This document shows, in pieces, positions 4,656 to 18,485 of a DNA stretch of 25,615 bases (position 1 is the first letter of the stretch; every line of letters starts with the position of its first letter). A program made the translations under genes and the position numbers. A model generated the notes under the pieces. It saw nothing but the letters and a program-made list of their open reading frames with translations. It was not told the DNA's origin and made no database searches. The stretch is from UHGV virus genome UHGV-0137099. One strand, written 5' to 3'. The stretch is from a virus.

Positions 4656-4979
4656 TTAAAACGGTACGTCGCTTTCTTCAATCGGAGAGTGATCGATGCA
4701 CAGCAGCTGCTGAATCTGGTCTTCAATAACACCCAGCTCCTTCTTAGCTTCGGCAGAGATTTTCTCTTTCTTCGCGCGAAGGGCATTAACCTGCATACCA
4801 ATAATGTCGATTGGTTCTAAAGCCGGGATGGCAACCTCTACCGTTTTGGTAGTAACGAGGACATACAGATCAGGGTATTGCTGTGACATGTCACAGGTGA
4901 ATGAGTGATAAGACGTTGGTAGATATGGGTTCGTTGTGGCCATAACGTAAACAGTTACGGGGATGGTAAGCGCTTCCAT
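4656..4979 (-). CDS. Hypothetical protein (107 aa)
   Basis: ORF on the operon strand with a strong SD (AAGGAG, 6-nt spacing) before ATG 4979. An alternative layout is an upstream 47-aa ORF from 5035 coupled to an internal ATG at 4889 (see findings). Confidence 0.5.
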   Translation of the reverse strand: MEALTIPVTVYVMATTNPYLPTSYHSFTCDMSQQYPDLYVLVTTKTVEVAIPALEPIDIIGMQVNALRAKKEKISAEAKKELGVIEDQIQQLLCIDHSPIEESDVPF

Positions 4980-5035
4980 AGCGACTCCTTGTTGATGTAT
5001 ACTCAGAGCCGATCAGTGTTGACTCTGTCGGCATT

Positions 5036-5427
5036 GGTCTTTCCTCATCACAAGCTTGGTCGCTTGTGATAAGTCCGAATGGTTTGGTCACCGTTCGGGG
5101 TAACTGGCCCGCCTTGTGCGGGCCTTTTGCCATCTAAAGGTTGCCGGTCTTTCCCGGCTGTCAGGGCTGGTCACGCCCGTTGGTCATTGGTCTTTCCTCC
5201 CGGTCTTTCCCGGCGCCAGAGCTGGTCAGGCTCGCTGGTCTTTCCTCACAGGCTCCCTCTTTTCGAGGGCTTCAGTTTTCACTGAACGGTCGCATAAATC
5301 TTTACTGTGTTAAAAAAATGCCCGGGGCGCCCGGGCCAAGACTACACACAGCAATTCGTATTCGTTGCGGTCTTTCCCGCATGTCATCGTACTGTCGGCG
5401 ACCCGAAGAATTCGTGCCCGTCTTTCC
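5036..5427. repeat. Array of at least 7 copies of the core GGTCTTTCC (minus-strand sense GGAAAGACC), several extended to CGGTCTTTCCCGG...CTGTCAG/GCTGGTC units
   Basis: Copies at 5036, 5146, 5189, 5202, 5237, 5369 and a degenerate one at 5419; the same core precedes start codons at 1499 and 4613. Confidence 0.8.
5312..5336 (-). terminator. Rho-independent terminator for leftward transcription
   Basis: GC hairpin GCCCGG-GGCGC-CCGGGC; on the minus strand it is followed by ATTTTTTT. Confidence 0.6.
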
Positions 5428-5581: not shown

Positions 5582-5968
5582 TTATTTTTGTTTGCGGGCT
5601 TGCAGTAACTCTTCAAATAAACGATTGAAACCGTCTACTTTTTCGCGAAGTTCCGTTAAATGCCGCTCTTTTTCAGATTCAGGGAGTGACGAAAAGAGTT
5701 TTAAAAGCTCTGTTTCTCGTTCATCTAACGGCGGCGGGGTGTCTACCGGGGTTCCCGGAGTGGCGGCTTCATCGCCGTAAAGTATCCAGGTAGGGCTGCA
5801 TTGAAGTGCGTTACTTAAAGCGAATAGGTTTTTCCCGCCAGGCTCACTATCACCGGTCTCCCACTGGGAGATAGTGACGTGCGCGACGTTAACCAGCTTC
5901 GCTAAAGCGCGCTGAGTAAGTTTGAGATCTTTTCTACGCGCTCTGATGCGCTCACCTGGCATTGTCAT
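5582..5968 (-). CDS. Phage repressor, short XRE-family HTH protein without a LexA-like peptidase domain
   Basis: 128 aa; N-terminal HTH (LKLTQRALAKLVNVAHVTISQWETG); divergent from a Cro-like gene; no SD upstream of the ATG, so possibly leaderless like lambda cI from pRM. Confidence 0.8.
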   Translation of the reverse strand: MTMPGERIRARRKDLKLTQRALAKLVNVAHVTISQWETGDSEPGGKNLFALSNALQCSPTWILYGDEAATPGTPVDTPPPLDERETELLKLFSSLPESEKERHLTELREKVDGFNRLFEELLQARKQK

Positions 5969-6048: not shown

Positions 6049-6243
6049 ATGTTAACAACTGATGCGATCAAATATTTTGGTAGTAAGAGAAAACTGGCTG
6101 AGGCCGCTGGCGTTAAGGCTCCTACTGTCTATGCGTGGGGGCGTTTGGTTCCTGAAGGTAAAGCGGCTCGTTTGTCTCTGATGACTGATGGCGAACTTGT
6201 TTATGACCCAAAGGCTTACCAACTGCCAGCCAAATCAGCTTAA
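6049..6243 (+). CDS. cro: Cro-like repressor (P22 Cro family)
   Basis: 64 aa; IKYFGSKRKLAEAAGVKAPTVYAWGRLVPEGKAARLSLMTDGELVY parallels P22 Cro IDHFGTQRAVAKALGISDAAVSQWKEVIPEKDAYRLEIVTAGALKY (recalled from memory); divergent from the repressor. Confidence 0.8.
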   Translation: MLTTDAIKYFGSKRKLAEAAGVKAPTVYAWGRLVPEGKAARLSLMTDGELVYDPKAYQLPAKSA

Positions 6244-10494: not shown

Positions 10495-11081
10495 ATAACA
10501 AATACACCTTGATTTATGCGGATCCGCCCTGGACGTACCGCGATAAAGCCAAAGATGGCGAGCGTGGCGCCGGGCATAAATACCAGACCATGACTGTGCT
10601 CGATATCTGCCGTCTCCCGGTCTGGGAACTGGCCGCTGAAAACTGCCTGCTGGCTATGTGGTGGGTGCCGACTCAGCCGCTGGAGGCGTTGCGAGTAGTC
10701 GAGGCGTGGGGCTTCCGTCTGATGACCATGAAAGGCTTTACGTGGAACAAATGCTACAGCCGGCAGACCGACAAACTGGCCCTCGGAATGGGCCATATGA
10801 CCAGAGCGAACAGCGAGGATTGCCTTTTCGCTGTGCAGGGGAAATTACCCGCCCGGCTGGATGCCGGGATCGTTCAGTCATTCGTGGCCCCGCGTCTGGA
10901 GCATTCGCGCAAACCGGATATCGTGCGCGAAAAGCTGGTGCAGCTGCTGGGCGATGTACCGCGTATTGAGTTATTCGCCCGCCTGTCGTCGCATGGTTTC
11001 GACGTGTGGGGTAATCAGTGTGAATCGCCAGCGGTGACGCTGCTGCCGGGCATTGCAGAATATATCGGGGAGGTAGCATAG
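10491..11081 (+). CDS. MT-A70-family N6-adenine DNA methyltransferase
   Basis: 196 aa; catalytic DPPW motif (LIYADPPWTY) and downstream conserved blocks typical of the MT-A70 family; GTG start. Confidence 0.8.
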   Translation: MNNKYTLIYADPPWTYRDKAKDGERGAGHKYQTMTVLDICRLPVWELAAENCLLAMWWVPTQPLEALRVVEAWGFRLMTMKGFTWNKCYSRQTDKLALGMGHMTRANSEDCLFAVQGKLPARLDAGIVQSFVAPRLEHSRKPDIVREKLVQLLGDVPRIELFARLSSHGFDVWGNQCESPAVTLLPGIAEYIGEVA

Positions 11082-11264
11082 ATGGCAGATTTTAGCGCAA
11101 CCAAAAGAACCGCGTCGCTCGAAGATTGGGGCGACGCGCTGGAATTAATCGTCGAATTAAATGGTAAATCATTCGATATCACAGAAATGGAGATTGAAGC
11201 CGCTTACGAGGCATATAAGCGAGTTGATGATTTTTTTTATGACGAATGGGGTGATGATCAATGA
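11082..11264 (+). CDS. Small very acidic protein (60 aa; 17 Asp/Glu against 5 Lys/Arg)
   Basis: ORF exactly filling the gap between the two methyltransferase genes; composition counted from the translation. Confidence 0.5.
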   Translation: MADFSATKRTASLEDWGDALELIVELNGKSFDITEMEIEAAYEAYKRVDDFFYDEWGDDQ

Positions 11265-12094
11265 TTGAAAAAAAAATCAGGCATCCTGTAATCAGATATC
11301 ACGGCGGGAAATTCCGACTGGCACACTGGATTATCGAGCAGATGCCGGACCACGTCTGCTATGTCGAACCGTTCGGCGGCGCTGCTGGCGTATTGCTTCA
11401 AAAATCGCGTAGCTATTCAGAGGTGTACAACGATCTCGACGGCGAGGTGGTGAACCTGTTTCGTGTGTTGCGCGACCCTGAATTAAACCAGCGCCTGCAG
11501 GATGCCTGTTGCCTGACCCCGTATTCACGCGATGAGTTCTGTCACGCTCAGCAACCAGCCACTAACCCTATCGAACGCGCCCGCCGTATGGTGGTTCGTG
11601 CCTGTATGGGGTTCGGCTCTGCCGCAGGTATCGGCGGTCAATCCGGCTTCCGCAGCGACAGCAAACGCAAATACGCTACGGCGGCGCATCTATGGGAGCG
11701 TTACCCGGCTAATCTCGCTGTTGTCTGTCAGCGCCTTCAAGGAGTCATCATCGAGAACAAAGACGCTCTGGCGGTAATGCGCGCCCACGACGCAGAAACG
11801 ACGCTGCATTACATCGATCCGCCATATATGCCGGAAACACGAGTGCAGAAAAATCGTTATTACAACCATGAAATGACCGTTGAAGGGCATGAGCAATTGC
11901 TCGCTGTGTCCAGAACGATGAAAGGCATGGTGATGATTAGCGGTTACGACACTGATGTCTACAACGACATGCTATCCGGCTGGGCGAAGACCGAGAAAGC
12001 ATCGCGCATCAGTGCCGGTCGCGGTATGAAAGTCCGTACTGAATGCCTCTGGCTTAACCCTGCAGCACAACAGAAACAGGAGCGTGCAGCATGA
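11261..12094 (+). CDS. Dam-like (D12 class) N6-adenine DNA methyltransferase
   Basis: 277 aa; SAM-binding motif EPFGGAAGV and catalytic DPPY (HYIDPPYM). Confidence 0.88.
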   Translation: MIEKKIRHPVIRYHGGKFRLAHWIIEQMPDHVCYVEPFGGAAGVLLQKSRSYSEVYNDLDGEVVNLFRVLRDPELNQRLQDACCLTPYSRDEFCHAQQPATNPIERARRMVVRACMGFGSAAGIGGQSGFRSDSKRKYATAAHLWERYPANLAVVCQRLQGVIIENKDALAVMRAHDAETTLHYIDPPYMPETRVQKNRYYNHEMTVEGHEQLLAVSRTMKGMVMISGYDTDVYNDMLSGWAKTEKASRISAGRGMKVRTECLWLNPAAQQKQERAA

Positions 12095-12127
12095 CAAAAT
12101 GCTGTAAGTGCTGCGAGAAGGTGATTT

Positions 12128-12466
12128 ATGGCTAAGTCATCCGCAGAACGTAAAGCCGCGCAGAGGGCGCGGCAATCTGCCGCCGGCAACCGGAAAATTG
12201 AGCTGGTTCTCGATGCGCAGGAAATGGACATGCTGGCGCGTAACTGCGCCGCCCGGCGCCCGGGCCGTGAACCGTACGAACTGGCCGAGTACATAGCTAT
12301 GCTGATCCGTCAGGATGATGTGCGGCTTAGTGGCCACATCAAATCGATCAGCAAACGCCTGTGTGGAAAGTGCGGTGAGTCGCTGCCGATCACCTCCTGC
12401 CCGTGTGCTGGTGATTCGCAATGCTGGGTAACGCGCGGGTGGCACGAAACTAAGCTGACAGTGTGA
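12128..12466 (+). CDS. Hypothetical protein with C-terminal Cys cluster (CGKCGESLPITSCPCAGDSQC)
   Basis: 112-aa ORF; possible small zinc-binding protein; no family recognised. Confidence 0.45.
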   Translation: MAKSSAERKAAQRARQSAAGNRKIELVLDAQEMDMLARNCAARRPGREPYELAEYIAMLIRQDDVRLSGHIKSISKRLCGKCGESLPITSCPCAGDSQCWVTRGWHETKLTV

Positions 12467-12541
12467 GGAGTAATCATTTTTTATGAAGCCTTATATGTTC
12501 TTGATAAAAGATGTGATTTATCAATTTATGCCCTTAAAAAT

Positions 12542-12570
12542 TTGCGATCACTACTCGTTGGTAGTATATA
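12542..12570 (+). promoter_or_regulatory. Sigma70-like promoter inside an AT-rich moron
   Basis: -35 TTGCGA (12542-12547), 17-bp spacer, -10 TATATA (12565-12570); followed by palindrome ACTGTGAATTTATACAGT and SD GGAGAGG. Confidence 0.45.
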
Positions 12571-12609
12571 TACTGTGAATTTATACAGTATTATTGTTGA
12601 GGAGAGGTA

Positions 12610-12801
12610 GTGGTTGATAAGAAAGACGCAGGAGACCTTCTCCCCGACAATGGTGATGTACTGATTACTTGTGAAAATGGGAAGATTAAGAAGACCAGAA
12701 TTGTCCATCCCGATGAGCACGTAGCGACACTTAACGCGTTGTTTGAATTAGCTAAATTGACTGGTTATACCATTATCAAACCAGACGGCAATATGCTATA
12801 A
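12610..12801 (+). CDS. Hypothetical small protein (63 aa) in an AT-rich moron
   Basis: GTG start after SD GGAGAGG; local GC clearly lower than its neighbours; own promoter-like sequence upstream. Confidence 0.4.
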   Translation: MVDKKDAGDLLPDNGDVLITCENGKIKKTRIVHPDEHVATLNALFELAKLTGYTIIKPDGNML

Positions 12802-12869
12802 TTACACCGTTGGCCTGAACACCCAACACCATGTAATTCTGAACAATTGCTGCGCTAAAGGGGATCCCA

Positions 12870-13466
12870 ATGGCGCAGTATTCTTTTGTAAAAGCACCCG
12901 GCGGTGTATTAATTCCGGCAACGCCTGACGCCCGCGATTTTTTAGAAAAAAAAGTCCGCCTGGGCGGTATTTTGTATGCAGATTTTAAGCAGGCAAGAAA
13001 CCCGGCATTTCACCGTAAATTTTTTGCCCTCCTGAATCTTGGATTTGATTACTGGCAACCTTCCGGCGGTGCAATATTGCCAGCTGATAAAAAACTGGTT
13101 CGTGGTTATGTGCAACTGGTAGCCCACTATGCCGGGCATGCAGACACGTTGCAGGAACTGGCGGATCAGTACCTCCGCGATGAGGCAGAAAAACGCGCAG
13201 GGAATATCAGCGCTGTTAAATCGTTTGAAGCATTCCGTTCCTGGGTAACTATCGAAGCTGGTTTTTATACCGAATACCAGATGCCTGATGGCACCACCCG
13301 CAAAGAACCCAAATCCATATCGTTCGCAAAAATGGACGATGTAGAATTCTCCCAGCTGTATAAATCCGTATTAGACGTCCTCTGGAATTTTATTCTATTC
13401 CGCACCTTCCCCAATCAGCAGGCAGCGGAAAACGCAGCCTCTCAGCTTTTCAGTTATGCGGCCTGA
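12870..13466 (+). CDS. Hypothetical phage protein (198 aa)
   Basis: Long clean ORF with SD AAAGGGGA upstream; no catalytic motif recognised. Confidence 0.6.
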   Translation: MAQYSFVKAPGGVLIPATPDARDFLEKKVRLGGILYADFKQARNPAFHRKFFALLNLGFDYWQPSGGAILPADKKLVRGYVQLVAHYAGHADTLQELADQYLRDEAEKRAGNISAVKSFEAFRSWVTIEAGFYTEYQMPDGTTRKEPKSISFAKMDDVEFSQLYKSVLDVLWNFILFRTFPNQQAAENAASQLFSYAA

Positions 13467-13476
13467 GGCGGACACT

Positions 13477-13953
13477 ATGAAATTCAATATTCGCTCTCAG
13501 ATCGTCGAAATGGATGTGGCCGACGCCCTGAATTTTGTGGGTTACCCCATCCACATTGGCTCGAATGGCTATGCAAAAGTCACCGGCTGGCATTTTGGCA
13601 AGGAAAGATACCTTCATCGCGTCATCATGAATGCGGGACCTCAGGATGTTGTTGATCACATTGATGGTAATAAGCTCAACTGCTCCCGCTCAAATTTGAG
13701 GATCTGCACACAGTCAGACAATACCAAAAACGTTGGTTTGAGGAGTGACAATAGCTCGGGAATTCCGGGAGTTTACTGGGTACCCACTCGCCTCAAATGG
13801 GCGGCGCAAATTTCAGTTGATGGCAGGACTGTTAGTTTAGGCCGCTTTGATGAAATGGCCGATGCTATCGATGCCCGCCGGAAAGCAGAAGATTTGTATT
13901 ACGGGGAGTTTGCAGCCAGCAAGGGGGTGCTTTGTGAAAAAGCGCACCAGTAA
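13477..13953 (+). CDS. HNH endonuclease with C-terminal AP2 DNA-binding domain (homing-endonuclease-like)
   Basis: HNH block HRVIMNAGPQDVVDHIDGNKLNCSRSNLRICTQSDNTKN; AP2-like block GIPGVYWVPTRLKWAAQISVDGRTVSLGRFDEMADAIDARRKAEDLYYGEFA. Start set at ATG 13477, after the upstream stop. Confidence 0.8.
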   Translation: MKFNIRSQIVEMDVADALNFVGYPIHIGSNGYAKVTGWHFGKERYLHRVIMNAGPQDVVDHIDGNKLNCSRSNLRICTQSDNTKNVGLRSDNSSGIPGVYWVPTRLKWAAQISVDGRTVSLGRFDEMADAIDARRKAEDLYYGEFAASKGVLCEKAHQ

Positions 13954-14248
13954 ATCAGACAAACAGCATTTCCAAGATCTCGTAGAGATAGGTTGTATTG
14001 TCTGCAAAGTACACCTCGGCGTGTACTCCCCCCCTGAAATTCACCACATCCGCAAAGGGCAGGGCATAGCCCAGCGCGCCGACCACAAAGAAACTCTCCC
14101 GCTTTGCCCTCCACACCACAGAACCGGCGGACACGGCGTAGCTATCCATGCAGGGCAAAAAACATGGGAAGAAAACTACGGAACGGAGACTGAATTGCTC
14201 GAACAGGTCACTAACGAGGTAAAGGAATTACGCTTATGCAGAATTTAA
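13934..14248 (+). CDS. HNH-family nuclease, Ref-like (recombination enhancement function) candidate
   Basis: Cys/His pattern CIVCKVH ... HHIRKG ... LPLCPPHH typical of zinc-finger HNH nucleases; GTG start at 13934 preceded by AAGGGGG. The track's longer start would overlap the HNH-AP2 gene. Confidence 0.5.
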   Translation: MKKRTSKSDKQHFQDLVEIGCIVCKVHLGVYSPPEIHHIRKGQGIAQRADHKETLPLCPPHHRTGGHGVAIHAGQKTWEENYGTETELLEQVTNEVKELRLCRI

Positions 14249-18128: not shown

Positions 18129-18485
18129 ATGAGCGACAAAGATATCGAACAGCAAATTCAGGCTAAAGGCTTAACCGCGCCGCGCGTCACTCCACAGCAC
18201 ATTGATAGCGTTATTGCTGAATGTCATTACTTTACGGCTGGCGAGGCTGCGCGCGCTGGGTGGCCTGACCCTAATGCCGCCGATCCGATTCACCCAAATC
18301 TAGACCTACTTACTATCTGCGTTCTGGTGCTACGTAACGGCTTCACCGTCACCGGCGAAAGCGCCTGCGCCAGCCCGGAAAACTTCGACCCTGAAATCGG
18401 GCGCAAGATTGCACGCGATAACGCGGTAAATAAAATCTGGATGCTGGAGGGGTATTTGCTCAAACAGAAATTAAGCGAACAGTAA
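18129..18485 (+). CDS. Hypothetical virion-module protein (118 aa)
   Basis: Preceded by palindrome CGTGACATGTCACG and AGGAAAGACCAATG; between scaffold and capsid genes. Confidence 0.5.
   Translation: MSDKDIEQQIQAKGLTAPRVTPQHIDSVIAECHYFTAGEAARAGWPDPNAADPIHPNLDLLTICVLVLRNGFTVTGESACASPENFDPEIGRKIARDNAVNKIWMLEGYLLKQKLSEQ

Follow-up and report, generated by a model that had tools for sequence, protein, structure and literature searches.

In a temperate Klebsiella phage, a small gene of 63 codons (ORF63) probably encodes an antirepressor that is repressed by LexA and ties the induction of the prophage to the SOS response, as in the Gifsy phages. Together with its promoter and operator, it is most likely the SOS induction trigger of a phage whose repressor cannot self-cleave. 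The gene lies in a window of 25,615 nucleotides, the whole stretch of DNA analysed here (UHGV virus genome UHGV-0137099), which derives from a podovirus-like Klebsiella prophage with a T7-type connector, a nozzle protein and a Phage_capsid_2 capsid. The features on which the argument depends are the following.

5582-5968, minus strand: prophage repressor, DicA-type, 128 aa, HTH only (HTH_3 and Phage_CI_repr HTH domains)
6049-6243, plus strand: Cro-like gene, divergent from the repressor (P22_Cro, E 1.1e-14)
12542-12547, plus strand: -35-like hexamer TTGCGA, read from the sequence
12565-12570, plus strand: -10-like hexamer TATATA, read from the sequence, 17-nt spacer from TTGCGA
12571-12590, no strand: LexA box TACTGTGAATTTATACAGTA, 17/20 match to the consensus TACTGTATATATATACAGTA, both half-sites intact
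12600-12604, plus strand: Shine-Dalgarno AGGAG, read from the sequence, 5 nt before the GTG at 12610
12610-12801, plus strand: ORF63, 63 aa, GTG start, predicted Rem/GfoA-type antirepressor (homology, selection)
12797-12802, plus strand: -10-like TATAAT that overlaps the ORF63 stop codon, in the promoter-like site 12773-12802
12809-12827, plus strand: hairpin 1, GTTGG / loop CCTGAACAC / CCAAC (covariation)
12850-12878, plus strand: hairpin 2, CTGCGC ... GCGCAG, enclosing the Shine-Dalgarno and ATG of the DUF1367 gene (MFE fold, z = -2.6)
12870-13466, plus strand: DUF1367 gene, homologue of Gifsy STM1020, in the irsA slot (PF07105, E 2.3e-83)

The segment around ORF63 is poor in GC, as an earlier reading made from the sequence alone had noted for 12470-12860; we find a GC content of 0.40 over 12400-12849, compared with 0.56-0.59 just upstream and about 0.48 downstream. 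That reading also described a near-consensus promoter. The hexamers and their 17-nt spacing are borne out and conserved, but the match of TTGCGA-17-TATATA to the consensus is 8/12, below the threshold of the consensus promoter scan, which does not list the site. In alignments, TTGC(G/A)N-17-TATA(T/A)A is kept in diverged lineages at a fixed distance to the LexA-box palindrome, with TATATA or TATAAA at the -10 position of the relatives, and TTGC(G/A)N lies 17 nt 5' of the -10 in five lineages with unrelated upstream DNA. The promoter is thus credible because the hexamers and the palindrome spacing are conserved, not because of its consensus match. An alternative -10 (TATACT) was rejected, as its 21-nt spacer is too long. 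A 12-nt palindrome at 12563-12574 (AGTATATATACT), kept in close relatives only, arises where the -10 joins the left LexA half-site. Just 5' of the -35, at 12475-12524, there are AT-rich inverted repeats (TTGATAAA-N8-TTTATCAA, and a 14-nt pair at 12475-12513) that are conserved only where the upstream gene is the same. By analogy with the terminator-like palindromes reported before Gifsy LexA boxes, these repeats may form a weak terminator or an insulator.

The LexA box of gammaproteobacteria has the form CTGT-N8-ACAG, with the consensus TACTGTATATATATACAGTA. Here the inverted repeat reads ATACTGT-N8-ACAGTAT (12570-12576 and 12585-12591). The box adjoins the -10, spans the predicted start of transcription and leaves 19 nt to the start codon of ORF63; a box that abuts the -10 and covers the start is the usual layout for LexA repression. 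TACTGT-N8-ACAGTA occurs once in the window, where 0.02 copies are expected even allowing one mismatch, and the looser core CTGT-N8-ACAG occurs twice (0.16 expected). The other copy of this core, at 4881-4896, is a perfect 16-bp palindrome (CTGTGACATGTCACAG) with a GC-rich centre inside coding sequence, in or between the minus-strand ORFs 4656-4979 and 4891-5133, and judging from its sequence and position it is probably not a LexA site.

A box with two half-sites precedes the start codon by 16-23 nt in 14 of the 16 loci of the family, corresponding to six distinct lineages with upstream DNA that otherwise does not align. E. coli phage vB_EcoM-705R4 keeps the box though its ORF63 homologue is only 40% identical, one half-site is degenerate in the L024 lineage, and the scan returned no LexA box for the distant homologues phi467 and L025, which sit in other genomic contexts. 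The -35, the -10, the LexA box, the Shine-Dalgarno and the GTG are all kept in five lineages that share no alignable DNA further upstream. The "operator-like palindrome" of the sequence-only reading is therefore real, and is a canonical LexA (SOS) box, rare by chance and retained across lineages. On the basis of its sequence, the identification of 12571-12590 as a LexA box is close to certain; that LexA binds there and that the promoter is SOS-inducible we infer from it. The prediction is that ORF63 stays off in a lysogen until DNA damage turns it on.

The ribosome-binding site and the GTG-started frame had been read correctly. No longer reading of ORF63 is possible because an in-frame TGA lies at 12598-12600, and the N-terminal extensions annotated on some database homologues are translated promoter region. 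Length (63 codons), GTG start and stop are conserved among lineages. The 5-6 differences from the nearest relatives are all synonymous, and between lineages there is a third-position bias (10/5/28 differences at codon positions 1/2/3, window versus L008). By these patterns of substitution, ORF63 is a protein-coding gene under purifying selection. In the assembly collection, 575 indexed blocks, most of them Klebsiella, contain this exact protein. The weak GTG codon, found in all Klebsiella-type lineages, would help to hold the basal level low. Two overlapping frames, a minus-strand 64-aa ORF at 12526-12720 and a 31-aa ORF at 12483-12578, have no PHROG hit.

ORF63 belongs to phrog_340 (E 8.6e-23), for which PHROGs give the function as unknown, and also hits the 'anti-repressor' PHROGs 4792 and 2379, with an 'anti-repressor' match graded weak. 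A profile search of 1.8 billion representatives yielded 52 clusters of homologues, mostly of 55-70 aa. In some of these clusters the ORF63 domain forms the C-terminal ~50 residues of larger KilA-N, P22_AR_N (Ant) or Rha proteins. The AF2 model (pLDDT 87.5) contains a beta-hairpin at residues 17-31 and a helix at 41-50; fold searches with this model gave no significant structural neighbours, and sequence searches of solved structures, with the single sequence and with the profile, gave nothing significant. A Pfam scan of ORF63 and close homologues found no match, DinI included (the library scanned was without PF27490), and megablast found none in E. coli genomes. No signal peptide or membrane segment is visible in the sequence.

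ORF63 is also homologous to Rem of the E. coli prophage Qin. Aligned with hhalign, the ORF63 family matches Rem with 92.8% probability (E 3.9e-7), and with the ORF63-family HMM, Rem reaches 26 bits and the small ORFs in the dinI-DUF1367 slot of ST846-OXA48phi9.2, mEp237 and SPN3UB reach 25-31 bits. The Pfam family PF27490 ('Rem') is precomputed on a homologue that is 79% identical to ORF63, with a weak record on P0041; the membership of ORF63 in PF27490 thus rests on precomputed hits to homologues plus hhalign. Similarity to GftA of Gifsy-2 is marginal (hhalign 28% probability, family HMM 6 bits), and GftA falls into a separate PHROG (phrog_4847). Rem was found by iterated searches that started from the Gifsy antirepressors GfoA and FsoA; it relieves DicA repression of dicBp 165-fold, and the signal that induces it was reported as unknown (PMC10448788). 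From homology and context together we infer that ORF63 has antirepressor activity. The sequence-only reading had proposed a toxin, a superinfection-exclusion factor or a host-modulating peptide; the homology leads instead to antirepressors of the Rem/GfoA type.

The putative target is the repressor at 5582-5968, in which a domain scan found no S24 peptidase (autocleavage) domain. Its identity to E. coli DicA is 63% (E 1e-58), and that to GtgR of Gifsy-2 is 36%. Four sibling prophages with ORF63 variants (five prophages counting the window) likewise have HTH-only repressors, of 128-151 aa. The N-terminal (HTH) halves of the sibling repressors diverge and overall identity falls to 34%, while the sibling repressors (L032-L036) and DicA all keep a C-terminal LPESEK...GF(N/D)xLFxELL region. 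In its LPESEK...GFNxLFEELL form, this region is a candidate docking surface for the antirepressor, or a dimerisation surface. Antirepressor and repressor variants show no one-to-one co-variation among the siblings, which is compatible with the cross-reactivity of Gifsy antirepressors on heteroimmune repressors and neither supports nor contradicts the model. Both the contact of ORF63 with the repressor and the part of the repressor contacted are putative.

Apart from a missing dinI, the gene order around ORF63 is that of the Gifsy induction module. Gifsy repressors are not cleaved (Lemire et al. 2011, PMC3121763), and downstream of the replication genes these phages have a LexA box followed by a dinI-antirepressor-irsA operon (PMC3121763). 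GfoA, GfhA and GftA are the LexA-controlled antirepressors of Salmonella Gifsy-1, -3 and -2, respectively (PMC3121763). The Gifsy antirepressor, with its GUG start, is alone sufficient for induction, and deletions of dinI and irsA are without effect (PMC3121763); as reported for gftA, a frameshift abolishes induction and leaves transcription unchanged. The Gifsy-2 record shows a LexA box (TACTGTGTTTATATACAGTG), dinI, a 73-aa GTG ORF and STM1020, in this order. In the window, 6.6 kb separate ORF63 from the repressor; the gene comes after DnaB and methylases and precedes by 69 nt DUF1367, whose product is 56% identical to STM1020 of Gifsy-2. By gene order, ORF63 is in the Gifsy antirepressor slot. 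No ORF, and thus no dinI, lies between the LexA box and ORF63. A dinI gene precedes the small slot ORF in SPN3UB and ST846phi9.2, and in mEp237 the gene at this place is annotated as hypothetical only.

In every related locus retrieved, DUF1367 follows ORF63 after 69 nt and is usually followed by a DUF968/RecA-dependent-nuclease gene, and the linkage of ORF63 to DUF1367 holds even where the late region has a YbcO-Q-holin lambdoid layout. A scan of the plus strand found no intrinsic terminator 3' of ORF63, and the hairpin at 12809-12827 lacks a T tract. DUF1367 is probably co-transcribed with ORF63, and the RecA-dependent nuclease gene is probably co-induced as well, because the scan found no terminator behind ORF63. 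PHROGs annotate DUF1367 as a NinB/Orf-like recombination mediator, and the nuclease gene nearby is Ref-like. Such neighbours invite the reading that ORF63 is SOS-regulated yet plays an accessory part in an operon for recombination or repair that damage induces, for example by modulating RecA or the downstream proteins, much as DinI stands at the head of the Gifsy operon. The invariable linkage to DUF1367, the usual linkage to the RecA-dependent nuclease and the absence of co-variation between antirepressor and repressor speak for it. We nevertheless consider it unlikely: ORF63 is homologous to Rem, a demonstrated antirepressor; in Gifsy phages the gene in this very slot suffices for induction, with dinI and irsA dispensable; ORF63 has no Pfam match, to DinI or otherwise; and a repressor that lacks a protease domain needs some trigger.

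Between the DUF1367 gene and the RecA-dependent-nuclease gene, the window contains an ORF with HNH_3 and AP2 endonuclease domains (13456-13953, within 13468-14039), at a site where siblings have only about 100 nt. This looks like the insertion of a free-standing homing endonuclease, and here lies the real insertion of the neighbourhood. A further variable slot lies between a 282-aa gene and the capsid gene (18129-18485); the window has a Phage_gp49_66 family gene there, and siblings have Acb2/Tad1-like and Tad2-like anti-defence genes (L002 11051-11320, L004 11064-11836, L006 11231-12036).

Variable cargo is also found immediately upstream of the ORF63 unit. The hot spot occupies the interval from the MT-A70 methylase to the LexA promoter (about 11075-12516 in the window; L001 1063-2714, L008 4688-5656, L015 2184-3943 and L016 1943-3810 in siblings). 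The window has a Dam methylase and a 112-aa phrog_536 protein at this place, and siblings have a C5 methylase, an HNH gene, a 322-aa minus-strand gene, a defence-like pair of RloB and AAA-ATPase, or three unknown genes. Where the 112-aa phrog_536 protein is the upstream neighbour, it is preceded by Dam, C5-methylase or HNH genes. The RloB and AAA-ATPase pair is upstream also in the phage record BUCT708. This record (L001, OM816834.1, 'Stenotrophomonas phage vB_SmeS_BUCT708') has 81% nucleotide identity and the same gene order as the Klebsiella-type module, and its assignment to a Stenotrophomonas host may be questionable.

By BLAST, homology upstream of the unit breaks at about 12517 or about 12606. 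The sequence-only reading had ORF63 as a horizontally acquired moron, expressed in the lysogen and interrupting the rightward operon, and it suggested comparing the presence and absence of the islet among related prophages. That comparison finds the unit in all loci examined, with the adjacent upstream segment replaced. ORF63 and DUF1367 are constant together with the promoter and operator, and it is the upstream DNA that varies; the operon is not interrupted by the unit. Promoter, operator and ORF63 thus move as one, at the head of a conserved block, and the variable cargo site is immediately upstream. The idea of a self-contained unit holds insofar as ORF63 has its own promoter and operator and is a real small gene; it fails as a present-or-absent islet, since the unit is constant in relatives. 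A moron is what the GC content below that of the flanks, the private promoter and the small ORF without a PHROGs function would suggest. The probability that we assign to this reading is nevertheless very small, given a unit present in every relative beside variable upstream cargo, no intrinsic terminator found on the plus strand behind it, a protein with no visible signal peptide or membrane segment, and homology to antirepressors. Moreover, since the operator is a LexA box, silence in the lysogen is predicted, which is the opposite of what a lysogen-expressed moron would require.

The region downstream of ORF63 has features of its own. Nowhere in the module is the DNA more conserved than in the last 60 nt of ORF63 and the 69-nt spacer. 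The promoter scan found a site at 12773-12802 (TTATCA-18-TATAAT with an upstream TG, 10/12), and a -10-like hexamer lies 6-9 nt before hairpin 1 in most lineages. Across 12 phage lineages that include Gifsy-2, Qin, SPN3UB and mEp237, 96.6% of cells are paired in hairpin 1, compensatory changes occur at 4/5 pairs, and the observed covariation score was reached by no shuffle. The stems differ (GTTGG/CCAAC, ACTGG/CCAGT, GCGGG/CCCGC, AACGG/CCGTT and others) around a conserved loop, (C)CUGAACA(A/C). In hairpin 2, 88.7% of cells are paired and two pairs have compensatory changes. The leader element occurs elsewhere at L021 11700-11780, L026 3578-3650 (minus strand) and L020 2345-2429, and in L027-L031. 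No Rfam family matches the hairpins of the DUF1367 leader. Hairpin 1 could act as a 5' stabiliser of a second transcript or in translational control of DUF1367. An Rfam hit to isrK, a Salmonella prophage sRNA, on the minus strand within DUF1367 (12949-13027) scored 18.9 bits against a gathering threshold of 50 (E 0.27) and is probably due to chance. That ORF63 itself is incidental and the segment an SOS promoter for DUF1367 only, as the unusual conservation of its 3' end and spacer as DNA with RNA structures might suggest, is very improbable given the constant 63 codons, the conserved GTG and stop, the third-position bias, and the 52 clusters of homologous small proteins with their domain fusions.

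The antirepressor model that we favour would operate as follows (in the lysogen and then after DNA damage). In the lysogen, LexA of the host would bind TACTGTGAATTTATACAGTA and shut the promoter at 12542-12570. DNA damage would activate RecA, LexA would cleave itself, and the promoter would fire, giving the 63-residue protein and probably also DUF1367 and the RecA-dependent nuclease. The ORF63 protein would then bind the DicA-type repressor (5582-5968), probably at its conserved C-terminal region, and take it off its operators. The early operon on the Cro side would be derepressed and lytic growth would follow. Points that weigh against this switch are the 8/12 hexamers, the absence of dinI, the marginal similarity to GftA, the lack of a fold match and the lack of co-variation.

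A broader proposal, which we advance tentatively and regard as possible rather than probable, joins these observations. ORF63 would be a minimal repressor-binding module of ~50 residues, the core shared by Rem, GfoA and the C-termini of Ant, KilA-N and Rha proteins, that docks on the LPESEK...GFNxLFEELL region of DicA-type repressors. For Rem, the ancestral signal would be the SOS response, lost in Qin when hokD-relBE displaced the LexA promoter, and the hairpins of the DUF1367 leader would be an undescribed cis-regulatory RNA common to Gifsy, Qin, Klebsiella and coliphage relatives. Docking on a shared C-terminal region would explain cross-induction between heteroimmune prophages.

The analysis proposes a function for a hypothetical gene that is very common in Klebsiella prophages and for which PHROGs list none. 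It predicts that these Klebsiella prophages are induced via LexA and an antirepressor, not by cleavage of the repressor, which bears on how quinolones and other DNA-damaging antibiotics induce prophages in Klebsiella. It also offers a testable answer to the question of the inducing signal for Rem-type proteins, since in intact relatives the gene lies directly under an SOS box. The variable cargo site of these phages is assigned to the adjacent upstream segment, not to the ORF63 unit.

Among known systems, Tum of coliphage 186 and AntC of N15 follow the same logic, with a LexA-repressed antirepressor acting on a repressor that RecA does not cleave (PMC3121763). Tum is larger (146 aa) and has a DinI-like half, and the phage types and gene positions are unlike those of ORF63; the likeness is one of logic. 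The large Ant/KilA-N/Rha antirepressors (P22 Ant class) carry the ORF63 domain at their C-terminus, and ORF63 is this domain alone. Furthermore, LexA does not govern P22 ant, which is under the control of Arc/Mnt and an antisense RNA.

Rem of Qin belongs to the homologous family, and its partner DicA is 63% identical to the putative partner of ORF63. The rem gene lies just 5' of the start of a remnant DUF1367, with the same leader hairpin as in the window. Rem has 83 aa with an extra, duplicated beta-hairpin segment, whereas ORF63 is a minimal single unit of 63 aa. No LexA box precedes Qin rem (best match 8/20), which lies behind hokD-relBE, whereas ORF63 lies directly behind its box. In E. 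coli K-12 (L026 3652-4130, minus strand), rem comes right after the hokD terminator and relBE, and next come the leader hairpin and the remnant DUF1367 start (ATGGCACGC). This arrangement suggests that insertion of the toxin-antitoxin genes (hokD-relBE) displaced the ancestral SOS promoter of Qin rem.

GfoA, GfhA and GftA share several traits with ORF63: their promoter carries a LexA box, the product is small and begins at a non-canonical codon, the gene sits apart from the immunity region and immediately 5' of irsA/DUF1367, and the repressors are short, non-cleavable and related to DicA. The Gifsy operon is headed by dinI, whereas in the window dinI is absent and the LexA box directly precedes ORF63. 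Thus, small LexA-controlled antirepressors of the Gifsy/Rem type were already known, and what is new here is the size of a single unit, the absence of dinI and the setting in a podovirus-like Klebsiella prophage.
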